Both the position numbers and the translations under genes were made by a program. A stretch of 64,000 bases of DNA from assembly GCA_021736975.1 (NCBI GenBank), contig JAIPET010000004.1, positions 2,008 through 66,007 on the forward strand. Reading direction: 5' to 3'. This document shows, piece after piece, positions 4,464 to 64,000 of the stretch; positions within the stretch are counted from its first letter, which is position 1; the number at the start of each line of letters is the position of its first letter. The notes under the pieces are model-generated. The model saw only the letters and a list, made by a program, of their open reading frames with translations. It made no database searches and had not been told where the DNA came from. This DNA is from Candidatus Woesearchaeota archaeon (GTDB taxonomy: Archaea > Nanobdellota > Nanobdellia > Woesearchaeales > 21-14-0-10-32-9).

Positions 4464-4600
4464 TGTAAATTAGGCTAATATAAAACCCTTCTTTTTGTAT
4501 TGCGAAGCAATATTATTGACTCCGTCAAAAACAAAAAACCAATATTTGAACTTGTTTTGCCATACAAAAAACAAAGAATTACAATTTAATTCACATTATA
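4464..4600. repeat. Family-3 intergenic repeat, copy 1
   Basis: TAAATTAGG...TTCTTTTTGTATT...TATTGACTCCGTCAAAAACAAAAAACCAATATTTG...GTTTTGCCATACAAAAAAC is closely similar to 47243-47410 (about 35-nt core with 2 mismatches). Confidence 0.45.
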
Positions 4601-4706: not shown

Positions 4707-4780
4707 GGGAGCTTAGCTCAGACTGGGAGAGCGCCACGCTGAAGACGTGGAAGTCCAGGGTTCAAATCCCTGAGTTCCCA
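4707..4780 (+). tRNA. tRNA-Phe (anticodon GAA), no encoded CCA
   Basis: 74-nt cloverleaf folded by hand. Acceptor GGGAGCT/AGTTCCC, D-arm GCTC-AGACTGGGA-GAGC, anticodon stem CCACG/CGTGG with loop CTGAAGA, T-arm CAGGG-TTCAAAT-CCCTG, discriminator A, followed by TAA. Confidence 0.9.
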
Positions 4781-6424: not shown

Positions 6425-7054
6425 ATGCAAATAACACCAACCGTATTTTCAAAAAATAAAAAAGAATTTGAAAACAGATTCAAAAAAATATCAAAACTAT
6501 CAAGAGAAATACAAATAGACATAATGGATGGAAAATTTGTAAAAACAAAATCAATAAATATTTCTGACTTACCAAATTTTTTATATTCAGGAAAAATAAT
6601 AGAAGCGCACCTAATGGTAAAAAACCCAGAAAAATATATTGAACCACTAAGAAAAAAATTTGTTGGACGAATAATATTCCATTACGAAACAACAAAAACA
6701 AAAACCCCTGAAATAATAGAAAACATACACAGACACGGAATGCACGCAGTAATGGCAATAAACCCAGAAACAAAACTAGAAAAAATACAACCATATACAC
6801 ACCTAATACACAGAGTCCTAATAATGGGAGTCAAACCAGGAAAAGAAAAACAAAAACTACTAATATCAACATACAAAAAAATCAAAGAACTAAAACAAAA
6901 TAATCTACATCTAAAAATACAAATAGATGGCGGCGTAAATAAAGAAACAGCAAAAAAATTAAAATACGCAGGCGCAGACATATTAAACACAGGAAGCTAC
7001 GTTACAAACGCAAAAGATCCGGAAAAAGCTCTAAAAGAATTAAAAAACATATAG
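6425..7054 (+). CDS. rpe: ribulose-phosphate 3-epimerase
   Basis: IDIMDGKFV and AHLMV motifs of the Rpe (TIM-barrel) family. 209 aa. Confidence 0.6.
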   Translation: MQITPTVFSKNKKEFENRFKKISKLSREIQIDIMDGKFVKTKSINISDLPNFLYSGKIIEAHLMVKNPEKYIEPLRKKFVGRIIFHYETTKTKTPEIIENIHRHGMHAVMAINPETKLEKIQPYTHLIHRVLIMGVKPGKEKQKLLISTYKKIKELKQNNLHLKIQIDGGVNKETAKKLKYAGADILNTGSYVTNAKDPEKALKELKNI

Positions 7055-7062
7055 AGAGCTTT

Positions 7063-7201
7063 TTCCAACATTTCTGTTTTTCAAACAAAAATCATCCAAA
7101 AAAAGCAATAGAAGAACTAAAAAATCTATAACTCACTTTTTCTAACATTTTCATTTTACAAACAAAAATCATCCAGAAAAAGCAATAGAAGAACTAAAAA
7201 A
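7063..7201. repeat. Tandem direct repeat, two copies of about 65 bp, in a convergent intergenic region
   Basis: TTTTC[C/T]AACATTT...CAAACAAAAATCATCCA[A/G]AAAAAGCAATAGAAGAACTAAAAAA occurs at 7063-7128 and 7136-7201, between rpe stop and the stop of the minus-strand gene at 7202. Confidence 0.5.
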
Positions 7202-7729
7202 CTAATATTTCTTTAATAAATTATTCAAATCAAAATACTGAGACCTAACACTCCTTAAAGAATCACTAAAATCTTCCTTAAACTTAACTTCAGAAACATA
7301 ATCGCCACTCCCAACACCAATATTAAAATCAGAATCAAATTTAAATTTGTCATTTGAACCATCAAGAGCATCATTCATTTTTTTATAAGCCAAAACATCA
7401 TTAGGACAGTTAATCTCAAAACCTCCTAATTTAAAACTTAAAGGAGTAAGCTTCAAATCAAAAGCCAAATTATTACCCTTGGAATAAAATTTAGTAAAAC
7501 AACCAACTAAACTAGGAACATCAGCAAAATCAACATAAGTACCTTTTATCTCAGAATGAAAAGAATCATTATAAAAAAAATTAGCTGATTGAATAAAAAA
7601 AGAAGACAACAACTCATTAAAAGGACCATTAGAATCATTAAGGAATTTTAAATCAGCAAATTCAGCATACTCATTTTTCAAATTTGTACCAATTTGAAAA
7701 TTTACTCCTAAACTATTCAAAATCGACAT
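7202..7729 (-). CDS. hypothetical protein
   Basis: 175-aa ORF. No recognisable motif. Confidence 0.4.
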   Translation of the reverse strand: MSILNSLGVNFQIGTNLKNEYAEFADLKFLNDSNGPFNELLSSFFIQSANFFYNDSFHSEIKGTYVDFADVPSLVGCFTKFYSKGNNLAFDLKLTPLSFKLGGFEINCPNDVLAYKKMNDALDGSNDKFKFDSDFNIGVGSGDYVSEVKFKEDFSDSLRSVRSQYFDLNNLLKKY

Positions 7730-7825: not shown

Positions 7826-8668
7826 ATGCTTGCAAAAAAAGAGGAAATTAAGTTAAAAAAGAAAGCAAACCAAATAAGACAAGACATAATATCCATGATC
7901 TACCACGCAGAATCAGGACATCCAGCAGGAAGCCTAGGAATGACAGATGTCTTAACCTATTTATATTTTAAATTTCTAAAAACATATCCAGGAGAACCCT
8001 CAAACCATAAAAGAGACTATCTAATATTAAGCAATGGACACATATGCCCTGCAATATACGCAACTCTTGCACACAAAGGATTCTTTAAAATGAAAGAACT
8101 CCTTACTTTAAGAAAATTAGGCTCAAGATTGCAAGGACACCCACACAGAACACAATTACCAGGCCTAGAAACAAGCAGCGGCCCACTAGGCAGCGGATTA
8201 AGTCAAGCATGCGGAATAGCACTCTCATTAAAACAAGAAAATAAAAAAAACCAAGTCGTAGTATTAACAAGCGACGGAGAACACGAAGAAGGAAACCAGT
8301 GGGAAGCAATAATGCTCGCAAACAAATACAAACTAGACAACATAATACAAATAATGGATCGAAACCACATCCAAATAGACGGAACCACAGACGAAATAAT
8401 GCCACTAAAAAATCTAAAAGAAAAATACGAAAGCTTCGGATGGCACGTACAAGAAATAAACGGCCACAAATTTAAAGAAATACATAACGCGCTAGAACTA
8501 GCAAAAAACCTAAAAGGACAACCAAAAATAATAATAGCAAACACAACACCCGGAAAAGGCGTGCGCTTTATGGAAAACACAAACAAATGGCACGGCAAAG
8601 CACCAAACCACGAAGAAACACATCAAGCAATACAAGAACTAAAAAAAGAATACGAAAAAATAAAATGA
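7826..8668 (+). CDS. tkt: transketolase, N-terminal (TPP-binding) subunit
   Basis: GHPAGSLGMTDVLTYLYF, SNGHICPAIYA and later GHP motifs. Stop overlaps the next start (ATGA). Confidence 0.8.
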   Translation: MLAKKEEIKLKKKANQIRQDIISMIYHAESGHPAGSLGMTDVLTYLYFKFLKTYPGEPSNHKRDYLILSNGHICPAIYATLAHKGFFKMKELLTLRKLGSRLQGHPHRTQLPGLETSSGPLGSGLSQACGIALSLKQENKKNQVVVLTSDGEHEEGNQWEAIMLANKYKLDNIIQIMDRNHIQIDGTTDEIMPLKNLKEKYESFGWHVQEINGHKFKEIHNALELAKNLKGQPKIIIANTTPGKGVRFMENTNKWHGKAPNHEETHQAIQELKKEYEKIK

Positions 8669-23849: not shown

Positions 23850-25379
23850 TTATCTTCTTCTGTTTCCTCTTGGTGCTCCGCCAGAAGACCTATTACCAGA
23901 AGATCTACCACCTGCAAAACCACCAGAAGACCTATTACCAGAACTTCCACCAGACCTACCGCCAGAAGAACCGCCAGAAGACCTATTACCAGATCCTCCT
24001 CTTCTATCTCCTGAACCCTCTTGATTTCCCCTACTATAATTACTTCTTTTAGAAGAATTAGAATCATCATTTAATCTATTAGAATTACCAGACGATCTAC
24101 CTGAAGACCTGCCACCTGCAGAACCACCAGACGATCTACCACCATATCTACTAGGAGGCCTACCGCCACCAGAGCCTCCACGTTTTCCACCGTTTCCACC
24201 ACTCCTATAATTGCCTCTTCTATCTCCAGAATTATTTGAATCTCCTCTAGACTGAACAATTTGAACATTAGGCAACTCTTTTGGAATCTCTTGCTTTTTA
24301 ATATCTAAAGTAAAAGATTGATTTAATCTTCCAAAATTCTGATGATCATTCTGAGAAAGAATAGTTATAGCAATACCTTCTTTTCCAGCTCTCGCAGTTC
24401 TACCAATTCTATGTACATATTGCTTTGGATCCTTAGGCACATCAAAATTATAAACATGCGAAACACTAGGAATATCTAATCCTCTAGCTGCAACATCAGT
24501 ACAAACCATAACAGAAACTTCCGATTTATGAAAATCTTGTAAAACCTTGCTTCTTCTATCTTGCGAAAAACCACCATGAATTGCTTTAGCCCTAATATTT
24601 TGAGCATTCAAATTCTTAGTAACAAAATCAACATTATCCCTACTATTACAAAAAACCATGACAAGACCAGGTTTTTCATTCTTAATTAAAGAAATCAATA
24701 AAGATAACTTTTGATTAGGTCTCACATCATAATAAACTTGTTTTAATTTTGTAGGATCAACTTGATTCTTAACAGCTACATCAACAGGATCTTTTAAGAA
24801 CCATTTAGAAACTCTTCTAATTTCAGGCGTGATAGTTGCAGAAAACAATAAAGTTTGTCTTTGTTTAGGACAAACAGAAACTATTCTTCTAACATCATCA
24901 ATGAAACCCATATCAAGCATAGTATCTGCTTCATCTAAAACAACAAAATGAGTTTCAGAAAAATCAATAGTCTCCCTTTCCATATGATCCATTATCCTAC
25001 CAGGGGTACCAACAACAACATCAGCCCTTCTAAGATTTTCAATTTGAGGATTAATAGAAACACCGCCATAAACAGAAACAACTTTCAATTTTTTATGTTT
25101 AGAAAATTTCTTGATAGCATCACTAACTTGCTCAGCTAACTCTCTAGTTGGAACAAGAATAAGTGATTGAACCACACTTTTCTTTTCAACATACTCAATA
25201 ACACCACACGCAAATGCAAGTGTTTTTCCAGAACCTGTTGCACTACCCGCAATAACATCTTTACCTTCTTGAATCAAAGGAATAGTTTTCTTTTGAATCT
25301 CTGTAGGTTCAGTAAAACCTTCTTCAGATATTACTTTTAGCACTGGTTCTATTATATTTAATTTTTCAAATTCATTCAT
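23850..25379 (-). CDS. DEAD-box ATP-dependent RNA helicase with about 150-aa C-terminal RGG/Gly-Ser-rich low-complexity tail
   Basis: Q-motif/TEPTEIQ, AGSATGSGKT, DEAD, SAT, HRIGRTARAG. Tail made of repeated GGRSSG/RGG units. Confidence 0.9.
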   Translation of the reverse strand: MNEFEKLNIIEPVLKVISEEGFTEPTEIQKKTIPLIQEGKDVIAGSATGSGKTLAFACGVIEYVEKKSVVQSLILVPTRELAEQVSDAIKKFSKHKKLKVVSVYGGVSINPQIENLRRADVVVGTPGRIMDHMERETIDFSETHFVVLDEADTMLDMGFIDDVRRIVSVCPKQRQTLLFSATITPEIRRVSKWFLKDPVDVAVKNQVDPTKLKQVYYDVRPNQKLSLLISLIKNEKPGLVMVFCNSRDNVDFVTKNLNAQNIRAKAIHGGFSQDRRSKVLQDFHKSEVSVMVCTDVAARGLDIPSVSHVYNFDVPKDPKQYVHRIGRTARAGKEGIAITILSQNDHQNFGRLNQSFTLDIKKQEIPKELPNVQIVQSRGDSNNSGDRRGNYRSGGNGGKRGGSGGGRPPSRYGGRSSGGSAGGRSSGRSSGNSNRLNDDSNSSKRSNYSRGNQEGSGDRRGGSGNRSSGGSSGGRSGGSSGNRSSGGFAGGRSSGNRSSGGAPRGNRRR

Positions 25380-29319: not shown

Positions 29320-31125
29320 ATGGCAGATACAAACTTACAAGATTATGATGAAAAAACGCAAAATCAAACACAAGAAAGTACAATAAAAGAACCCATAAAA
29401 GAACCCGTTAAACAAAACGAACCTAATAAAAAAGAAATTCCAACCAATTCAAGTGATTCAAAAGCACACGAAATGGCAAAAAGCCAAAGAGAAATTTCCA
29501 TTGCCGAATTCTTTGAAAAAAACAGACACCTACTAGGTTTTGACAATAAAAGAAAAGCACTACTAACAACAATAAAAGAAGCAGTAGACAACTCCCTTGA
29601 CGCATGCGAAGAAGCAGACATACTACCAGAAATAATAGTAGAAATACACGAAGTAGGAAATGACAAATACAGAGTAATAATAGAAGATAATGGACCAGGA
29701 ATAATAAAAGCGCAAATACCAAAAATATTTGCAAAACTACTATACGGATCAAAATTTCATAAACTAAAAATGCAAAGAGGACAACAAGGAATAGGAATTT
29801 CTGCAGCAGTAATGTACGCACAACTAACAACAGGAAAACCAGCAAAAATAATATCAAAAATCCACAAAGACGAACCAGCACACTACTACGAACTAAAAAT
29901 AGATACAGCAACAAACAAACCCGACATAGTAAAAGACGACATGAAAGAATGGTACAAAGACCACGGAACGAGAATAGAAATAGATTTAGAAGCAAGCTAC
30001 AATAAAGGAAACCAATCAGTAGACGAATACATAAGAGAAACCGCAGTAATAAACCCGCACGTAACACTAATATATCAACCGCCAAAAGGCGAACAACTAA
30101 TGCTTGTTCGAGCAACAGAGCAAAAACCAAAACAAGCGCAAGAAATCAAACCACACCCATACGGAGTAGAACTAGGAATGCTCATAAAAATGCTAAATGT
30201 AACAGAAGCAAAAACAATAAAACAATTCCTAAAAGAAGACTTCTCAAGAGTAGGAGATAAAGCAGCAGAAGAAATACTAGAAAACTCAAAACTCCTAAGC
30301 AAAACAAAAACAAAAAACATCTCAAGAGACATGGCAGAACAACTAATGGAAGGAATCAAAAAAACAAAACTAATGATGCCACCAACAGACTGCATAGTAC
30401 CCTTAGGCGAAGAAATGCTAGAAAAAGGAATAAAAAAAGAAATCAACGCAGAATTCTACACATCAGTATCAAGACCACCCGCAGTATATAGAGGAAACCC
30501 ATTTGCCATCGAAGTAGCAATAGCATACGGCGGAGACCAACCATCAGACAAAGCAATAAACGTAATGAGATTCGCAAACAGAGTACCACTACTATACCAA
30601 CAAGGAGCATGCGCAACACAAGAAAGCATAACACAAACAAACTGGAAAAGCTACGGAATAAACCAAACAGGAAGCAACATGCCAACAGGACCAATAACAG
30701 TAGTAATACACATAGCATCAGTATGGGTGCCATTCACAAGCGAAGCAAAAGAAGCAATAGCGCATTACCCAGAAATCATAAAAGAAATGAAACTAGCAAT
30801 ACAAGAAGCAGGAAGAAACCTAGCAAAATACGTAAAGAAAAAGAAAAGAGTCAAAGACGAACTCAAAAAAAGATCATACATAGAAACATACATACCACAC
30901 ATCGCAGAAGCACTAAGAGACTTAACAGAATGCTCTGCTACCGAAGAAGAAATAATAAAAGAAAACCTAACAGAACTACTAGAACAACAAAGAGGAAAAG
31001 TAGACTCACTAGACTTTGACCCAACAAAAAACGAAGAATACGATGAAGACTTCGCAAAAATAGGAAGAGAAAAAGATGAAGAAGACGAAGAAGACGATCA
31101 AGAAGAAAACGGTGAAGAAAAATGA
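29320..31125 (+). CDS. top6B: DNA topoisomerase VI subunit B
   Basis: GHKL/Bergerat ATPase motifs ([18 protein letters not shown]), transducer domain, acidic C-terminal tail. Confidence 0.9.
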
Positions 31126-32204
31126 CTAAAACACTAGAAAAAATAAAACAAACCGCAAAAAAACTATTCACAAACATCAAACTAAAAGAAAAAGCAGAAA
31201 TGGAATCACCAGTAAGATCCCTAAACAACGTAATATACAACAAAAAAGACGGATATTTTGAACTAAAAGGAATGATGAAAAAAAGAACACTAACCGCAAA
31301 CACAGTAAAAACATTCGCACAAACACTAAAAATGATGTCACTATCAAAAGAACTAATAAACTCAGAAGACATCGCAACAAAAAGAGAAGCATACTACGTA
31401 AGCAAAAACTGGGGAGAAGCCAGATTCAAAGAACAACCAGAAAGCGACGCAGTAATGGACGACATCGAAGCAACATTCTCATGCAACAGAGAACAACTAG
31501 GATTCATAGCAGACGAACACGGCGGAAGCCTAGCAGGCGCACTAACAGTAATAGACAAAGACTCCACAACAAAAAAAGAAATAAAAATAGACTGCACAAA
31601 ATTTGGATCAGGAAGTTATTCAATACCAAGTGACGTAGAACATTTAAAATTTGAAACAAAAGCAAAATTTGTACTAGCAATAGAAACACAAGGTATGTTT
31701 GAACGATTAAATAAACACCAATACTGGAAAAGCGCAAACTGCATAATAATATCAATGAGCGGAGTACCAAGCAGAAGCTGTCGAAGATTCATAAGAAAAC
31801 TAACAGATGAAACAAAAATTCCTTGCTACGTATTCACAGACGGAGATCCATACGGAATGATGAATATATACAGAACACTAAAAGTAGGATCAGGAAACGC
31901 AGCACACATAAACGAATACTTTTGCGTACCACACGCACACTTCATAGGAATAACCCCACAAGACATAAAAGACTACAAACTACCAACACACCCATTAAAA
32001 GAAGTAGACATAAAAAGAGCAAAAGACGCAATCAAAAATGATCCATTCGTAAAAGACCACAAAGAATGGCAAAACGCACTAAAAGAAATGATACAAGGAA
32101 AAGTCAGAGCAGAACAACAAGCACTCGCAAAGCATGGATTAAATTTTGTAATATCAGACTACCTACCAGAAAAAATGAAGAATGAAAAAAGCTGGCTACC
32201 ATAA
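31122..32204 (+). CDS. top6A: DNA topoisomerase VI subunit A (Spo11 homologue)
   Basis: Start overlaps top6B stop. Toprim DGDPYG. Spo11-like 5Y-CAP region. Confidence 0.9.
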
Positions 32205-32412: not shown

Positions 32413-33429
32413 ATGAATTCAATAAAAAACATATTAACAATAAGCGCAATAACACTAACAACACTATTATATTCCTGCAAAAACAATGACCAACCAATAA
32501 CAATTAGACCTGAAAACACCCAAACGCCAAAAAAAGAACTACAAATACAACCAGAAATCAAAAAAGAACCAAAATATAAAATGCTTGAATTTGATCAGAT
32601 AATAAATACAGATCTAGGAGAAATAACTCTGAAAGAAATAGGCTTAATGGATGCCTATTACAATCTCAAAGAAAATGAAACTACAAGATTTGAATTAACA
32701 CTTCTTACAGATAAAACAGAAGAAACATGGAGTCAAATAGATGCAGAAGGAAATTTCACCGATAGCACAAGTAGCTACACAAAAGATTCCCTATTAGAAA
32801 AATTTGAAGGATCTGAAACAAACTCAATTATAATATATAAAAACAAAATACTAATTAATAAATCTGAAATAAACGCGTACAACTTAGAAGCGACAGTAGA
32901 AAATGGTTTAATAACAACAAAAGAACTAGAAGAAAAAAAAGCAGATGCAAAAACAAAATTTGCAGAAGTTAAAAAATCATTTAAAGACGCAGTAAACAAA
33001 GAACTCGACTTGTATCTAAATAAACTTAATAAAATAATCAATAAAACATACATATTTGATTCAGAAAATAATTTGACAACACTCGTACTTACTCTTGAAA
33101 ATAATTATAAAGCACAAATTAAAGACACAAATAACGATAATAAAATAGACTTTAATAATTCAGACGAAGTAAATATCTCAATTGATAGAGACATATACGG
33201 AAACGAAAATAATAACTCATTTTGGATGAATGATAAAGAATTTTCAATCGGTGTAAACCTAAATACCGAAAATGAAAATACTTCTTATTTTAGAGCGAAC
33301 TCGCAAACACCAATCATACAAGAAATTTATAATTCAACAAAAGAAAAAATTGCAAAAAAAATAAACAACATCTATAAAAAAACATTAGATGAACGAACAG
33401 AACAAATCAAAAGAGCAATAATGCAATAA
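32413..33429 (+). CDS. secreted lipoprotein-like hypothetical protein
   Basis: Signal peptide ending LLYSC, Asn/Glu/Lys-rich. Stop codon lies inside the conserved 5' block of Family-2 element copy A. Confidence 0.5.
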   Translation: MNSIKNILTISAITLTTLLYSCKNNDQPITIRPENTQTPKKELQIQPEIKKEPKYKMLEFDQIINTDLGEITLKEIGLMDAYYNLKENETTRFELTLLTDKTEETWSQIDAEGNFTDSTSSYTKDSLLEKFEGSETNSIIIYKNKILINKSEINAYNLEATVENGLITTKELEEKKADAKTKFAEVKKSFKDAVNKELDLYLNKLNKIINKTYIFDSENNLTTLVLTLENNYKAQIKDTNNDNKIDFNNSDEVNISIDRDIYGNENNNSFWMNDKEFSIGVNLNTENENTSYFRANSQTPIIQEIYNSTKEKIAKKINNIYKKTLDERTEQIKRAIMQ

Positions 33430-33623
33430 TGAAAATCCCTGCTCCGAATCTATCTCCGCCCTAAAGGACGGAGTATTACGACTCAGTCGCCTAGACGGGA
33501 TTTTCAAATTGCGCACTATCGACCTAAATGCACAAAAACAATAGTTTTTGGCATGCCAGAAACCACAGTTTCTGTGCAGGTCGGGGTATTAAACCCCATT
33601 CGCTAACGCGCAATAATAAAAAT
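33424..33623 (+). repeat. Family-2 GC-rich structured element, copy A (candidate ncRNA)
   Basis: 5' block CAATAATGAAAATCCCTGCTCCGAATCT and 3' block GTATTAAACCCCATTCGCTAACGCGCAATAATAAAAAT are shared with 61989-62283. Internal helices AAAATCCC/GGGATTTT, CTCCGCC/GGACGGAG, CAGAAAC-CACA-GTTTCTG. Confidence 0.5.
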
Positions 33624-33919: not shown

Positions 33920-34210
33920 TCATACTTTGAAGTTCTCTGGAACATAACAAAAAATTGAAAGAATAAAATCATAAACATTTTTTCTATGTTCAAATTTTAA
34001 AAGATACAAAATATCTTTTTCTTCATCATAAGAATAAATTAATCTAAAAGGCTTTACATACAAACTTCTTTCGTTATGCTTATATCTTAATGGCTTTCCG
34101 ATATAAGGATTTTGAGATATTTTTTGAACTTGTTTATTCACCTTAATTTTTAAAAATGGATCTAATCTTTTTGTACTTTTTTTGAATGCTTCCCCCGCAA
34201 TAGTTTTCAT
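33920..34210 (-). CDS. RelE/ParE-family toxin
   Basis: GKPLRYKHNERSLYVKPFRLIYSYDEEKDILYLLKFEHRKNVY. Confidence 0.6.
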   Translation of the reverse strand: MKTIAGEAFKKSTKRLDPFLKIKVNKQVQKISQNPYIGKPLRYKHNERSLYVKPFRLIYSYDEEKDILYLLKFEHRKNVYDFILSIFCYVPENFKV

Positions 34211-34211
34211 A

Positions 34212-34463
34212 TCACCAAGAGTTCATTTCTTTTAAAAAGTCTTTAGAGTCGAATTCCGAATACTTTCCGGCACGAATATCTTCCCAAATTTTATCAAGTT
34301 CTTCCATTTCTTTGAGTTCTTGTTTTGTATAACCTTCTACTTTTTTTAGTACAATCATATCTTTTTTTCGCATAACAGAAAAAGCAGTTCCAGAATTAAG
34401 ATCTTTTCTTGCTTCTTTTGGAATCACAATTTGACCTTTTGAACTAAGTTTCGTTATTAACAT
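34212..34463 (-). CDS. AbrB/MazE/SpoVT-type antitoxin
   Basis: SSKGQIVIPKEARKDL swapped-hairpin motif. Immediately upstream of the toxin. Confidence 0.6.
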   Translation of the reverse strand: MLITKLSSKGQIVIPKEARKDLNSGTAFSVMRKKDMIVLKKVEGYTKQELKEMEELDKIWEDIRAGKYSEFDSKDFLKEMNSW

Positions 34464-47242: not shown

Positions 47243-47410
47243 ATAAATTAGGATACAAAAAAAATTATTAAAAATACAAGATTCAAATAATATAATATGA
47301 AACAATTCTTTTTGTATTTTCAAATACCAATATTGACTCCACCAAAAACAAAAAACCAATATTTGCATATATTTTTGCAATACAAAATACAAATAATACA
47401 AATTAACATC
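47243..47410. repeat. Family-3 intergenic repeat, copy 2
   Basis: TAAATTAGG...TTCTTTTTGTATT...TATTGACTCCACCAAAAACAAAAAACCAATATTTG...TTTTGCAATACAAAATAC homologous to 4464-4600. Confidence 0.45.
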
Positions 47411-47484: not shown

Positions 47485-48798
47485 ATGAAACCCAATAAAA
47501 CAATAATCATTCTATTAATAATAGCACTAATACTAATAACAGGCTGTGATTTTATAGGAAGCGAAAACAGAGGATGTACTGCTGGAGACGCTTGCAGATA
47601 CTATACAGGCACAGAAGGAATATGGATGTATGAAGAAACACCACCAAGATATTTATACTATAGATCAGAAGATGTGGCAGATCCAGATGGAAACGCAATA
47701 GATATAAGTGTAAGAGTAGAAAATCATGGAGCAAGCGAAGCAAAAGGAGCAGTATTCTTAACAGGATTCGCAGAAGGAATGAGCGACATATTCATAGTAG
47801 AAGATAACGGAAATTTAAGAGAAGTAACAATATCAAACATACTAGACGCATGCTATTTTGATTTAGATACAGTAGGAGGCGCATCAAGCCTAACCAATAT
47901 GTTCGGATTATTTAGTTGCGGTGGATTCACAGGAGGCAATAGACCAGGTGGGTGGAGCATAGGAACAAACTTTAAACAAGTAGCAGAAACATTCGGATGG
48001 AATCTAGGAGGCCTTGAAGCATTAAACTTTGAACTAGGAAGAGATTACGACTCAGGATGGAACTTCAAACTAGGAGTTGACGACGAATACTTCAACTTCA
48101 TGTATAACGGAAGAGCATTAGCATTTTTAGTATCAAACCTAGACTTAGAAAGATGGGGTGGCGCAGGATACAACCTAAATGGAGATAATCAAGACACACC
48201 AGGCGGAGATGTAGACTATAAACAATTCAAAGTAAAAATGGAAGGAACATGGCCAGCAGGACAAGATTTCTTTGACATAAGATATCAACTAAAATCATGC
48301 TACGGATACACAACATACGTAAGTCCAATGCTATGTATAGACTCAGATCCATTCTCATCAGAAGACAAAGTTTGCGTATCAGAACAAATGAACTTTGGAG
48401 GAACACAAGGAGCACCAGTAACTGTAACAAATGTAGACCAAACAAACACAGGAAAAGAACTAATACTCGACTTTGAAATAAGAAATTCCGGAAACGGAAA
48501 AGTATGGGATGTTGGAAGACTAGAAGCATGCAGCCCCTATTTCCCAGGAAGTGTAAAACCATCATATCATGACGTAGTATACATAGGACCTGCAAGAGTA
48601 GGATATAGAGAAATAACATGCAATACAAGAAAAGTAAGACTAGATCCAAAATCAGGAACAGGAAGATTCACATGTAGAGTACCATCAGAAATAGGAGGAG
48701 ACGTTGGAAGCGGAACACAAATACCTCTACAAATGGAACTATGGTACGGATACGAAGAAGTACAAACAAATCAATTAACAGTCAGAAAATTAAGCTGA
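47485..48798 (+). CDS. secreted lipoprotein-like protein, paralog 2 of 3
   Basis: Signal peptide plus ITGC. YTGTEGI and GAPVTVT motifs. Confidence 0.55.
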   Translation: MKPNKTIIILLIIALILITGCDFIGSENRGCTAGDACRYYTGTEGIWMYEETPPRYLYYRSEDVADPDGNAIDISVRVENHGASEAKGAVFLTGFAEGMSDIFIVEDNGNLREVTISNILDACYFDLDTVGGASSLTNMFGLFSCGGFTGGNRPGGWSIGTNFKQVAETFGWNLGGLEALNFELGRDYDSGWNFKLGVDDEYFNFMYNGRALAFLVSNLDLERWGGAGYNLNGDNQDTPGGDVDYKQFKVKMEGTWPAGQDFFDIRYQLKSCYGYTTYVSPMLCIDSDPFSSEDKVCVSEQMNFGGTQGAPVTVTNVDQTNTGKELILDFEIRNSGNGKVWDVGRLEACSPYFPGSVKPSYHDVVYIGPARVGYREITCNTRKVRLDPKSGTGRFTCRVPSEIGGDVGSGTQIPLQMELWYGYEEVQTNQLTVRKLS

Positions 48799-57870: not shown

Positions 57871-58278
57871 TTATAAATATTTTTCACATAATTCTTTTAT
57901 TATTTCTTTAATTTCTTTAAGTGCTGCTTTTGTCACATTTTCCGAAACGGGTTTCCCATAATAATTTATGCCGTTTCTGAGTTTTCTTAATCTATCAAAT
58001 TTGTTTGAAAGAATTATTTCTCCTTTTTCAAGTAAATAATCAGTGTATGCTTCATGAGAATAAATTTTATATCCTTCACTTAAAGCTATAGCTTCCAATA
58101 TTTGACGCAAGGATTCGTATGCTTGACTTAAAATGATTGAAGCAGAATTTTTATCAAGATGGATTTTTTGAACGACCAGAAAATTATTTTTTGACATTTT
58201 TTGAAGAGCTAAAACTTTTTGTGTGTCTGGAATACTCTTTACTACTTTTTTATTTTTAATATACTCCTTAAAACCCAT
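57871..58278 (-). CDS. HEPN-domain protein (toxin-like partner of the upstream nucleotidyltransferase)
   Basis: Helical 135-aa protein with LRKLRNGINYYG (Rx4-6H-like; H replaced by Y). Confidence 0.5.
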   Translation of the reverse strand: MGFKEYIKNKKVVKSIPDTQKVLALQKMSKNNFLVVQKIHLDKNSASIILSQAYESLRQILEAIALSEGYKIYSHEAYTDYLLEKGEIILSNKFDRLRKLRNGINYYGKPVSENVTKAALKEIKEIIKELCEKYL

Positions 58279-58847
58279 TATTTAACCTCTATAAATCCTG
58301 ATAATTTAACTCCATTTATTATGTTGTTAAAAAGTTCTTTGTTTAAATTTTCGAATTCTTTTCGGTTAAAAACAAATAATTGAATTTCTCTACCTAAAAA
58401 TTTCTCAAATTTTTTCAAAGAAACCTCCTTTTTATCATCAGTGATGATGCACAAATCTATATCGCTGTTCTCATTAAAATCCCCTTTAGTAATCGATCCA
58501 AATAAAATTATTGCAGGATATGCATATTTATCTTCTAAAAAATCAATTAGATTTGATTCCAGAATAAATTCAATGAAATAACTAATTTTTCTATGTCTTG
58601 CTTTTTTATTATTTGCATATGAAACAAATTTTTTTTCATCCTTAACAACATCAACAAGATTATTGGCTTTAAGTTCATTCACAGTAGTTATTATTGTATT
58701 TGGATGTAGGTTCGTATTCCTTGCTAATTCTCGTATGTGCATAGGTTCTTTATTTAATAATGTCTTTAATACTATTTCTTCATTATTCCTCATGATGTTT
58801 GTATAAATATTTGTATATATAAATATTTTGTCTATTTTATTGTACAA
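58278..58847 (-). CDS. minimal nucleotidyltransferase (MNT) with N-terminal wHTH
   Basis: GSITKGDFNENSDIDL NTase motif plus HTH. Shares a 1-nt stop/start overlap with the HEPN gene. Confidence 0.6.
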   Translation of the reverse strand: MYNKIDKIFIYTNIYTNIMRNNEEIVLKTLLNKEPMHIRELARNTNLHPNTIITTVNELKANNLVDVVKDEKKFVSYANNKKARHRKISYFIEFILESNLIDFLEDKYAYPAIILFGSITKGDFNENSDIDLCIITDDKKEVSLKKFEKFLGREIQLFVFNRKEFENLNKELFNNIINGVKLSGFIEVK

Positions 58848-61300: not shown

Positions 61301-61951
61301 ATGTTACTAGGAAATAAAGCACAACAAATAAAAGAATATTTATCAAATTATCCAGAAGAATTAAAAGACAAAAGACAAAAAAAATTAGAACAACTTCTAT
61401 TAATATTTAAACAATATCAATTTGAATTTTTAAAAAATAATTACAACATACCAGGAATGCCAGAAAATGAAACACATATGTACTTATGGCTTAACTTAAT
61501 ACCAGATTTAAACAACAAAATAAATTTAATAGAAACTATAAAACAAAAAAATCCTAAAATAAAAAAAACAATAAAAATTTTAGAAGACACATATATTTTA
61601 ATGAAATATACAACTAGAAAATATATTAAAACAACAAAAGAATATTCAAAAATAAAATCAGTAAAAATACGTCAAAACATACTAGATTTAACCCCTTTTA
61701 ATAATTATAATGAATCAGATAAAACAATATCATTACACCACATAATAACAAAAGAAAATGAAATAAACAAAAATGAAGAAAAAACAGAATTTTACTATCT
61801 GAAAAATAACAAACAAACAACAATAACTCTAGAAAAACCAATAAACATAAAAGATAATAAAGATTCAGCAATAATACTGATAAATGAACTAAATAACTTA
61901 GTAAAAAAAGAAATAGGACTATTTTACAAATTTGATAAAATAAATATTTAA
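61301..61951 (+). CDS. hypothetical protein
   Basis: 216 aa. No recognisable motif. Confidence 0.4.
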   Translation: MLLGNKAQQIKEYLSNYPEELKDKRQKKLEQLLLIFKQYQFEFLKNNYNIPGMPENETHMYLWLNLIPDLNNKINLIETIKQKNPKIKKTIKILEDTYILMKYTTRKYIKTTKEYSKIKSVKIRQNILDLTPFNNYNESDKTISLHHIITKENEINKNEEKTEFYYLKNNKQTTITLEKPINIKDNKDSAIILINELNNLVKKEIGLFYKFDKINI

Positions 61952-61988: not shown

Positions 61989-62283
61989 CAATAATGAAAA
62001 TACCTGCTCCGAGTCTGCTCATAAATAATATTTTCTGGCACACAAAAACCAAAAGTTTTTTCGTGTATCTTAACCATAAATGCAAAGACAAAAAATAAAT
62101 CAAAGATTTATTGTGCACTAAAAAAAAATATTTTTTTACGTGAAGCGCAGCTTTCTGCATGGCAGAAACATAAAGCGTTTCTGAGCAGCACGGAGTACGA
62201 CAAAATCAAAGATTTTGTGTACAATAAATGCAAAGAATTTATTCGTATTAAACCCCATTCGCTAGCGCGCAATAAAAATAATC
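61989..62283 (+). repeat. Family-2 GC-rich structured element, copy B (candidate ncRNA or 5' leader)
   Basis: Shares the 5' block CAATAATGAAAATACCTGCTCCGAGTCT and 3' block GTATTAAACCCCATTCGCTAGCGCGCAATAA with 33424-33623. Internal ACGGAGTACGAC and CAGAAAC-ATAAAGC-GTTTCTG hairpin. Confidence 0.5.
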
Positions 62284-62346
62284 TAAATTTAACAAGAAAA
62301 TCTAAAAAGAAAAGATATTTAAAAATAATAAATAAAAAACAATATA

Positions 62347-63795
62347 ATGGTAGAAATTGAATTTGATAAAATAAAACAAATAATAAAAACAACACAAGAC
62401 TACATAGAAAACCAATCAAAAAAGAAAAAAGAACAAACAGAAAAATTGCAAAAAAACAAAAAATATGACTACGAAGAACTATACAAAGCAACTAACAACC
62501 ACCACTTATTCTCTGAACACACAGTGAAAGTAATCAACAAACTAAAAGAAAAAATTCAAAAACAACCCCCAAACAAAGAACTAGACGAACAAATAAACAT
62601 ACTAGAAACAATAAAAACAAGAATAGAAATAATAAACAAAATACTAAAACAACAAGTAAACTCAATAGAACAAAAAAACATAGAAGAATACCTAGATCTA
62701 TACGAACAAGAAAAAATAATAGATCAAGGAACAATAAACAACTACGAACCAAAACTAAAAAAATACAATATAAAAATCCCAAAAATACTACTAAACACAA
62801 CAGTAATAATACTAATGCTATTAGGATCAATATCTGAAATGAAAGGAGGAGAACTAACAAGAAAAATAATACCCAAAAAAAATCCAGAAATAATAAAAGT
62901 AATGGAAAATTACAAAAAAAATCTAAAATCAAAAATAATTCTTAAGGGAACCGAGCATTTACCTAATACAACTGAATTTTCACTAGACAAAATAAAAGAA
63001 GCAATAGAAGAAGCAATAGCATTCACAATATATAACTATGGAAAAACAAAACAACCAGAACAAATAGTGATAAAACTGATGCCAGGATGGAATCTACACA
63101 CATTAGGACAATTTACAGGACATTTAAACACTCAAACCATGGAAATAGAAGTAAACCTATCAGAAACATATACATCTTACAAAGCATACCATATATTCAT
63201 AGCGAAAACACTTGGAACAATAATACACGAAACAACACACTACCTAGATTTTTTTAACAATCCAGATAACCTAGAAATAGATCTTAACATAGAAAAATGG
63301 AAAAAAGGAATTTCATTGCCAAACGAATACAAAAAAGTTATTCAAACCCTACAAGCATACAACAATATACTAATAGAAACAGAACTAAAAGCTCACAAAA
63401 TACAAACAGATTATTTAATTCTACTAAAAAAAGAATTTCCACAGTTTGAGCATGTACATGAAACAAAAGAAGGCGGAATGGAAAAAGGAATATTTTTCAT
63501 AAAAGACATCATACAAGAAAAAAAATCAAAACTAGCAATAATAAAACAAGGAGAATACTCTGGACAAAAACAATTCATACAAAATGCAAAAGAAAAAATA
63601 GCAGGTCAAATGATAAACAAACAAATATCAATAAACCCATTATTTAAAGATAAAAAAGTAAATATAGAAGAAATAAGTAAATATTTACAAATAGAACTAG
63701 AACTCGCAAAAAAAGGAGTTTCTATAATGAGAGAAGAAAACATTTTGCAAATAGAAATAAATAAAACAAATAATTCTATATTTATATTCAAATAA
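62347..63795 (+). CDS. hypothetical membrane protein with HExxH (HETTH) zinc-metallopeptidase-like motif
   Basis: 482 aa, central TM ILLNTTVIILMLLGSI, LGTIIHETTHYLDFF. Confidence 0.45.
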   Translation: MVEIEFDKIKQIIKTTQDYIENQSKKKKEQTEKLQKNKKYDYEELYKATNNHHLFSEHTVKVINKLKEKIQKQPPNKELDEQINILETIKTRIEIINKILKQQVNSIEQKNIEEYLDLYEQEKIIDQGTINNYEPKLKKYNIKIPKILLNTTVIILMLLGSISEMKGGELTRKIIPKKNPEIIKVMENYKKNLKSKIILKGTEHLPNTTEFSLDKIKEAIEEAIAFTIYNYGKTKQPEQIVIKLMPGWNLHTLGQFTGHLNTQTMEIEVNLSETYTSYKAYHIFIAKTLGTIIHETTHYLDFFNNPDNLEIDLNIEKWKKGISLPNEYKKVIQTLQAYNNILIETELKAHKIQTDYLILLKKEFPQFEHVHETKEGGMEKGIFFIKDIIQEKKSKLAIIKQGEYSGQKQFIQNAKEKIAGQMINKQISINPLFKDKKVNIEEISKYLQIELELAKKGVSIMREENILQIEINKTNNSIFIFK

Positions 63796-63918
63796 AAACA
63801 AAGTATAACTTATACAAAATCACAAAAATCAAAGAAAAAAATTAATCAAAAAACCAGATAATATCCTCTTCTGCAACAACGCTAAAATCAAAGATTCACT
63901 AATTGCAAAATCAAATAT

Positions 63919-64000
63919 CTAAATAATATCCTCTTCTGCAACAACAAGGAAATCACCCATTGCAATAACTGCAGAAAATGGAATTAAAGCATCTCCTTCC
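63919..64000 (-). CDS. 3' end of a minus-strand gene continuing beyond the window (unknown product)
   Basis: Reverse frame reads ...EGDALIPFSAVIAMGDFLVVAEEDII then stop (TAG complement at 63919-63921). Confidence 0.3.
   Translation of the reverse strand, partial: EGDALIPFSAVIAMGDFLVVAEEDII

Follow-up and report, generated by a model that had tools for sequence, protein, structure and literature searches.

We analyzed a 64,000-nt stretch of a contig from a Candidatus Woesearchaeota archaeon (JAIPET010000004.1, assembly GCA_021736975.1; this whole stretch is referred to as the window). A sequence-only reading of it had noted two copies of an element, copy A (33424-33623, 200 nt) and copy B (61989-62283, 295 nt), and had taken them for structured RNAs. 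We consider it somewhat probable that both copies represent a lineage-specific, degenerate and mosaic repeat that derives from insertion sequences (ISs) of the IS200/IS605 family, resembles palindrome-associated transposable elements (PATEs) and HgcC, and is or recently was multi-copy. The broader statement, that A and B are selfish or mosaic repeats and not a dedicated new RNA gene, is likely. We observed that a hairpin of copy A is identical to hairpins at IS200/IS605 ends and lies on the minus strand, that both copies carry a tetranucleotide signature at their flanks, that they have a mosaic make-up, and that the window has no transposase gene.

Two related copies with conserved end blocks

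The 5' block of A, CAATAATGAAAATCCCTGCTCCGAATCT (33424-33451), recurred at 61989-62016 with an identity of 26/28, and the 3' block (33586-33623) recurred at 62245-62282 with an identity of 35/38 and a single mismatch in its 31-nt core. Both blocks had the same orientation in the two copies, occurred twice each in the window and gave no match in 100 shuffles. The recurrence reported in the sequence-only reading was thus reproduced, as was the difference in length between the interiors (200 versus 295 nt overall). All the internal motifs that it had listed were also located: the motif ACGGAGTA(TT)ACGAC at 33468-33482 (A) and 62190-62201 (B), the CAGAAAC...GTTTCTG hairpin at 33557-33574 (A) and 62163-62183 (B), and, in A, the helix TGAAAATCCC/GGGATTTTCA (33430-33439 with 33497-33506) and the hairpin CTCCGCC/GGACGGAG (33454-33473). 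The 5' block of A does begin at CAA TAA (33424-33429), the last codon and stop of a 338-aa open reading frame (ORF), and the imperfect direct repeat CAATAAT(G/A)AAAAT was found at both copies with the same sequence. The asserted GC richness held for A, whose GC content reached 43% over 200 nt and which is the GC-richest non-coding stretch except for tRNA-Phe. For B it held in patches only (26% over 401 nt). The overall GC content of the window is 30%.

An IS200/IS605-type hairpin in copy A

On the minus strand, the hairpin at 33454-33473 reads CTCCGTCC-TTTA-GGGCGGAG and has an 8-bp stem with one T.G pair; only this orientation gives T.G, as the plus strand has a C.A mismatch instead. It corresponds to the IS200/IS605-type subterminal hairpin. 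The term "RE-like tetraloop" has been used for an 8-bp stem capped by UUCA or UUUA (PMC4615843). When A was compared with phage and plasmid records by blastn, the sole match was its positions 29-57, ATCTCCGCCCTAAAGGACGGAGTATTACG (window 33452-33480), which were 27-28/29 identical to sequences of Helicobacter phages, Helicobacter plasmids and A. pleuropneumoniae p9555, with E values of 4e-3 and 1e-2 in two separate collections. The matching site lies ~20 nt (H. suis plasmid) or ~90 nt (Helicobacter phage) past the stop codon of a tnpA of the IS200/IS605 family, next to which a divergent tnpB is located, and in p9555 it follows a tnpA remnant. The bacterial copies bearing this hairpin lose their mutual likeness a few bases beyond it. 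At positions 660-700 of the H. suis plasmid, a second hairpin, of the IS608 type (CCCCATAGCTAAAGCTAGGGGG then TTTACGGCGCG), stands beside another tnpB, and two IS200/IS605 subtypes thus adjoin each other in that plasmid.

An exact 20-mer scan of viral contigs for the hairpin yielded 20 loci, 12 of which also had tnpB. In all but 1-2 of the 12 tnpB-bearing contigs, the orientation CTCCGTCC-TTTA-GGGCGGAG was that of the tnpB sense strand, and the hairpin marked either the right end, directly downstream of tnpB, or the left end, past a divergent tnpA. Because this orientation at tnpB-linked IS ends falls on the minus strand of the window, the minus strand is taken as the top strand of the element. 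The left end of the Helicobacter/Campylobacter IS605-type elements, in which tnpA and tnpB are divergent (annotated as ISCco1-like in phage COL 23-PUJ), has a hairpin that is 20/20 identical to that of A, shares the flanks CGTAA(A/T)A (5') and AT (3') with it, and has the same predicted target, TTAT. In these left ends, however, TTAT(C) is located 15-18 nt upstream of the hairpin and is followed by an IS body with genes, whereas A has no TT?T at 15-18 nt, has no more than 28 nt of sequence after its hairpin, and comes from a host in another domain of life.

Flanking tetranucleotides and the guide rule

In IS608, a 4-nt guide immediately 5' of the hairpin foot recognizes the cleavage tetranucleotide; for the left end this site lies in the flank, 19 nt upstream, and for the right end it lies 10 nt downstream (PMC3201880). 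A guide/cleavage rule derived from IS608 was checked on 23 hairpin-bearing loci. With guide bases G1-G4 and cleavage-site bases C1-C4, the rule states that C1 is the complement of G2, C2 that of G1, and C4 that of G4. It fitted 6/6 guide types read (GAAG/TCAC, GAAT/TCAA, AAAG/TTAC, AAAT/TTAA, CAAG/TGAC and AAAA/TTAT) and also the HgcC consensus (GAAC/TCAG, with the site at +7 to +10). Among unrelated IS200/IS605 copies with an identical hairpin, the 4-nt guide varied and the cleavage tetranucleotide, at +7 to +10 or 15-18 nt upstream, changed along with it. This joint variation serves as a natural experiment and confirms the guide rule of IS608, and the rule is usable as a quick test for calls of IS200/IS605 ends.

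The guide of copy A, AATA, predicts TT?T, and TTAT was seen at the flanks and ends of both copies. On the minus strand, both read TTAT|TGCGCG... ...CATTAT|TG, with the corresponding plus-strand ATAA at 33613-33616 and 33426-33429 (A) and at 62272-62275 and 61991-61994 (B). In A, the former is the proposed target or cleavage tetranucleotide in the left flank, and its twin ends the element and supplies the stop of the 338-aa ORF; in B, 62272-62275 lies in the minus-strand left flank within the 3' block. Viewed on the minus strand, the 3' block of A is the left end, in which the flank ...TTAT is followed by TGCGCGTTAGCGAAT (15 nt) and a GGGG...CCCC hairpin. The 5' block is the 28-nt tail after the IS-type hairpin and ends ...GGGATTTTCATTAT|TG, the proposed right-end terminus. 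The element proper would then span ~33426-33612. We also considered the plus strand as the top strand, for which GAAA exactly 19 nt 5' of the hairpin matches the guide CTAT; this was contradicted by the hairpin orientation at real IS ends.

For IS200/IS605 elements, a fixed tetranucleotide marks the insertion point, with the element placed on its 3' side; a related tetranucleotide forms the end of the element, and neither inverted ends nor a target duplication arise. The present repeat shows the same combination: the left flank carries the fixed tetranucleotide and the right terminus a related one, terminal inverted repeats are missing, and the target is not duplicated. Direct reading of the sequences found no terminal inverted repeats at the ends of either copy: the ends of the whole element share CGAAT/ATTCG only, and inverted repeats are confined to internal sub-units. 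The flanking direct repeat described in the sequence-only reading would be accounted for by an IS200/IS605-type insertion at the tetranucleotide, and the last codon and stop of the 338-aa ORF are intact because CA|ATAA is restored with or without the element. A classical MITE was rejected, as there are no terminal inverted repeats beyond CGAAT/ATTCG and the flanking repeat is the same sequence at both copies, not a variable duplication.

Modular architecture of the two copies

Copy A consists of two units. Unit L (33430-33506, minus strand, 77 nt) is closed by the perfect 10-bp inverted repeat TGAAAATCCC/GGGATTTTCA and holds the IS-type hairpin, and unit R (33508-33614, 107 nt) is closed by an imperfect 15-nt inverted repeat, ATTGCGCACTATCGA/TCGCTAACGCGCAAT (12/15), and holds the AAAAAC/GTTTTT and CAGAAAC/GTTTCTG hairpins and GGGG-TATTAAA-CCCC. 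Copy B shares the end blocks; its interior is AT-rich, contains small hairpins and lacks a local IS hairpin. Its sequence CTGCTCCGAGTCTGCTCA (62004-62021), which comprises part of the 5' block and an extension, pairs with TGAGCAGCACGGAG (62182-62195) in a long stem enclosing ~160 nt. Only CTCCGT of the IS hairpin is kept in B: the remnant ACGGAGTACGAC (62190-62201) reads GTCGTA-CTCCGT on the minus strand, which corresponds to the 5' arm and guide side of the hairpin, where A has GTCGTAATA-CTCCGTCC.... The order of motifs also differs, as ACGGAGTA stands before ATTG(C/T)GCACTA in A and after it in B, and one hairpin module is inverted between the copies.

Indications of further copies

The window sequence is identical to contig JAIPGR010000006.1 (GCA_021735585.1), to the contigs of a second bin (MAG2) and to contigs of three Logan runs. 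The three Logan assemblies break at the same bases in A, where the left contigs end at 33478 and the right ones start at 33477. In B, the left contigs end at 62221 and the right ones start at 62247, 62252 or 62256, and one Logan contig spans exactly from inside A to inside B. The contigs of MAG2 end at 62257 and start at 62221 inside B, and read through A. This contig-end evidence comes from five independent assemblies, i.e., the three Logan runs (k=31) and two metagenome-assembled genomes (for MAG2, an inferred k=67).

From these ends, we infer that another locus shares 33449-33506 (58 nt) exactly. On the left, this segment is bounded by the A/G position at which the two 5' blocks also differ, and on the right by the last base of the 10-bp inverted repeat; MAG2 would read through A because a 58-nt repeat is resolved at k=67. 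In B, a segment of ~85-95 nt from GGAGTACGAC through the 3' block (62192-62286) likewise seems to have exact counterparts at one or several other loci. Alternatively, the breaks at 33477/33478 may reflect a polymorphic insertion at a TATTA|C-like site in A. The shared-segment reading accounts for both copies and both assemblers better than an insertion polymorphism does.

The sequence-only reading had proposed a search for the two blocks in other archaeal and DPANN DNA, and searches of this kind gave no match in the DNA covered. Exact-pattern scans for the 3' block in genome, metagenome and viral contigs and for the 5' block in viral and metagenome contigs yielded 0 matches. The nearest species representatives, mostly Woesearchaeota/Nanoarchaeota bins, have a Top6A identity of 67-74%; in 80 Woesearchaeota loci around Top6A in this identity range (1.2 Mb), nhmmer and blastn detected no match to A, B or the blocks, and no comparable dispersed GC-rich repeats were present there. 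A 694-aa chimera of six-frame peptides of A and B, used as bait for spurious ORFs over other copies, retrieved nothing at E <= 10, and a contig walk in both directions from the window encountered no further copy.

Relation to known elements and RNA families

In transcripts that overlap tnpB genes of the IS1341 type, the RE-like tetraloop is found close to the 3' end; it is also described for the HgcC family, for repeated intergenic Pyrococcus abyssi RNAs and for an RNA of Halobacterium that derives from a PATE (PMC4615843). PATEs are non-autonomous IS200/IS605 derivatives of haloarchaea with fused left and right ends (PMC4615843). Similar to PATEs, the repeat is short, ORF-less, apparently multi-copy and intergenic, lacks terminal inverted repeats, has an IS200/IS605 subterminal hairpin (in A), is located 3' of a fixed tetranucleotide with the same one at its end, and may give a structured RNA. 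It differs from PATEs in that one hairpin is recognizable (in A only, and not at both ends), the cleavage-site distances do not fit, extra hairpin modules form a mosaic, the end blocks have no known IS counterpart, and no cognate transposase was seen. The repeat therefore shows the defining features of PATEs in part.

At the Rfam thresholds, no family was detected over copies A and B and the tRNA model was silent, and ARAGORN found no tRNA there, in agreement with the statement in the sequence-only reading that the element is not recognizable as tRNA, 5S, SRP or RNase P. In a permissive search, 33431-33535 on the minus strand of A aligned to the whole HgcC model (RF00062, positions 1-130; 14.0 bits, E = 0.23, threshold 50), with the 5' block aligned to the 3' tail of the model. 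In the same search, 33453-33474 (minus strand) aligned to the terminal hairpin of sot0042 (RF02656; 11.5 bits, threshold 88). The E values of the HgcC and sot0042 alignments were 0.2-0.6. The repeat shares with HgcC and the sotRNAs its occurrence as a GC-rich island in an AT-rich archaeal genome, the 8-bp stem, the UUUA tetraloop and a ~23-nt tail. In contrast to them, similarity outside the hairpin is weak, A does not follow the +7 to +10 cleavage rule obeyed by the HgcC consensus, and there is no tnpB upstream.

Proposed origin of the repeat

In the IS200/IS605-derived model, the functional (top) strand would be the minus strand of the window, on which each copy lies directly 3' of TTAT and ends in ...CATTAT. 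Copy A would retain the canonical subterminal hairpin of the type bound by the Y1 transposase TnpA, and copy B would have lost it and gained AT-rich hairpin modules. Further copies are expected elsewhere in the genome, and the copies may spread, or may formerly have spread, by means of TnpA acting in trans through single-strand "peel and paste". If an RNA is made, it would come from the minus strand and resemble HgcC and omega RNAs, the name by which the tnpB-overlapping transcripts are now known; such a product is possible.

Several points weigh against this model. A mobile IS200/IS605 element requires one hairpin at each end. Regular expression and BLAST searches found a single hairpin of this type; the hairpin at the opposite end of A, GGGG-TTTAATA-CCCC, is unrelated, and B has no IS hairpin, in place of which a 13-bp long-range stem surrounds AT-rich hairpins over ~160 nt. 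The distance from the hairpin foot to the terminal TTAT is 28 nt in comparison with the canonical ~10 nt, TT?T is absent 15-19 nt before the hairpin foot in A, and the third guide base of A is T and not the usual A. Copy B and the right half of A gave only noise against plasmids, and the conserved blocks match no known IS end. Neither tnpA nor tnpB was found in the window, its extensions or the 1.2 Mb of relatives, and a six-frame peptide search of A and B revealed no tnpB remnant or TnpB-like peptide. By the Rfam criteria, with 14 bits against 50 and 11.5 against 88, the repeat is not HgcC or sot0042. Finally, the other copies were deduced from contig ends and not seen. The sequence-only reading had named ends of a known IS or MITE as the finding that would speak against it; the hairpin of A is an IS200/IS605 end with the flank signature, so this largely came true, but not for the blocks.

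If the IS200/IS605-derived model is correct, a false lead is removed, since the GC-rich, RNA-like islands that stand out most in this AT-rich DPANN genome would be relics of transposon ends. Screens for noncoding RNA by GC content in AT-rich genomes would keep returning such relics, like the original HgcC screen. The hairpin, predicted to bind TnpA, is the same base for base in Helicobacter ISs, viral contigs and a Woesearchaeote, which bears on the travel of one IS200/IS605 lineage. If transcribed, the copies would provide a DPANN example of PATE- or omega-RNA-like RNAs.

Alternative readings

One alternative, which we judge rather unlikely, is a generic mosaic interspersed repeat (BOX-, BIME- or nested-MITE-like) without IS200/IS605 ancestry, whose IS-type hairpin was acquired or arose convergently in one copy and which was moved by an unknown recombinase or by gene conversion. 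The conserved blocks without IS homologue, the cleavage-site distances that do not fit IS200/IS605, the division of A into two modules each with its own inverted repeat, the shuffling of modules between A and B, and the lack of the hairpin in B are all consistent with such a repeat. BOX (pneumococcal) and BIME/REP (enterobacterial) elements have conserved end modules and a variable number and order of internal hairpin modules, and they resemble the present copies in their modular hairpins, stable predicted folds and location just after genes. There is no sequence relation to them, however, and boxA and boxC are mutually complementary, whereas the blocks here are not. In addition, a 20/20 hairpin together with 7-8 flanking bases matching real IS ends is difficult to obtain by convergence, the TTAT signature at the left flank and terminus with a matching guide is specific to IS200/IS605, and the whole element lacks both terminal inverted repeats and a duplication of variable targets.

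Folding predictions bear on two further alternatives, both of which assume an RNA gene. For A, the predicted free energy was -69.6 kcal/mol on the plus strand (z = -7.1 versus shuffles) and -82 kcal/mol on the minus strand (z = -8.1), so that the minus strand folded better; for B, z was -4.1 (plus) and -2.9 (minus). Oligo-T runs are present inside the plus strand (T5-T7) and inside the minus strand of A (T5) and B (T9). As archaeal RNA polymerase tends to terminate at oligo-T runs, a full-length transcript is unlikely from either strand. A comparison of the two copies found no compensatory changes in their shared helices; as both copies have the same sequence in these helices, there is no covariation between them.

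It is unlikely that the repeat is a stand-alone guide RNA gene of the HgcC/omega-RNA kind on the minus strand, whose product would serve in trans a TnpB from another locus or would be retained by the host for regulation. The fold of the A minus strand and the alignment to HgcC, which is weak but covers the whole model and stops at the proposed right end, would agree with this. PATE-derived and tnpB-overlapping RNAs with the tetraloop are indeed expressed, and their overexpression alters growth (PMC4615843). The absence of tnpB from the window, its extensions and the relatives, the Rfam scores far under threshold, the missing hairpin and weak minus-strand fold of B, the T5 and T9 runs and the lack of covariation all argue against it. 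A more specific version, that the copies are live TnpB-less guide-RNA genes of a DPANN archaeon, which would act as minus-strand scaffolds with their own flank as guide for a TnpB supplied in trans by genome, host or virus, or which were co-opted for gene regulation, is quite unlikely. In that case, module shuffling would be a way to diversify scaffolds.

The sequence-only reading, in which A and B are new plus-strand structured noncoding RNA genes or 3' untranslated region elements with conserved ends, is very unlikely in our assessment. What stands of it is that the copies are real, related, strongly self-pairing and unmatched by standard RNA models; its strand, architecture and transcript length did not withstand the analysis. 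The plus strands do fold far better than shuffles, each copy is co-oriented with and just after an upstream gene, and two differences between A and B keep G.U pairing (CGAAT to CGAGT opposite ATTCG, and AUUGCGC to AUUGUGC opposite GCGCAAU). However, the minus strand also folds far better than shuffles, the motif order differs so that two long-range helices, nested in A, cross each other in B, T5-T7 runs interrupt the plus strand, no match exists in the 1.2 Mb of relatives or the scanned contig collections, and the opposite strand carries an IS end in the interior of A.

A tRNA gene that is disrupted, permuted or interrupted by several introns, or an attachment site that derives from a tRNA and was left by an integrated element, is effectively refuted: AAATCCCTG in the 5' block does match the T-arm and 3' part of the tRNA-Phe of the window, TGCAGGTCGGGG in A matches the variable loop and T stem of the tRNA-Thr of relatives, and a single tRNA in 64 kb compares with 70 found by ARAGORN in 1.2 Mb around Top6A of relatives, many of them with introns of 27-55 nt, but these matches are 9-12 nt long (E = 0.06-4), the Rfam tRNA model was silent, and ARAGORN with introns, with lowered thresholds and with every single deletion of 12-259 nt returned nothing credible. 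The interpretation of A and B as attL and attR of a 28.5-kb island was ruled out because the interval between them holds housekeeping genes, e.g., RFC and a Ski2-like helicase. A processing stem or bulge-helix-bulge joining the two blocks was also rejected, as 5 bp only can pair (CGAAT/ATTCG), and integron attC, diversity-generating retroelement, retron, and C/D or H/ACA sRNA were discarded because their anatomy did not match and the partner gene was lacking.

Neighboring genes and other features of the window

The window is archaeal, as topoisomerase VI B and A are encoded at 29320-32204 according to the ORF listing and Pfam families. The 338-aa ORF directly upstream of A (32413-33429) has a lipobox-like N-terminus (...LLYSC), and its protein had zero homologues among 5.8 billion clusters. 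A Pfam search gave no match for the 216-aa (61301-61951) and 482-aa (62347-63795) proteins flanking B. The genes flanking both copies are orphans. To the right of A, a toxin-antitoxin-like pair is present at 33920-34463 (minus strand), consisting of a ParE-family toxin and an 83-aa partner. Another such pair, ~3 kb to the left of B at 57871-58793 (minus strand), consists of a nucleotidyltransferase (NTP_transf_2/Polbeta with a winged-helix N-terminus) and a 135-aa partner.

Besides copy A, the other main GC island of the window is a GC-rich proline-rich repeat of CCAGAAGACCTATTACCA units at 23878-24150, within a 509-aa minus-strand ORF (23850-25379). A second dispersed repeat family was found at 4476-4589 and 47293-47406; its copies are 114 nt long, 74% identical and AT-rich, with a small hairpin, TTGACTCCGTCAA. 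One copy is located upstream of tRNA-Phe (4707-4780), the single tRNA gene of the window, and the other upstream of the ORF at 47485, and a Logan contig ends at 4419, just before the first copy. Tandem arrays are present at 7002-7207 (three 77-nt units, with a fourth partial match at 8604) and, directly after the 482-aa ORF, at 63844-63955 (two 65-nt units).

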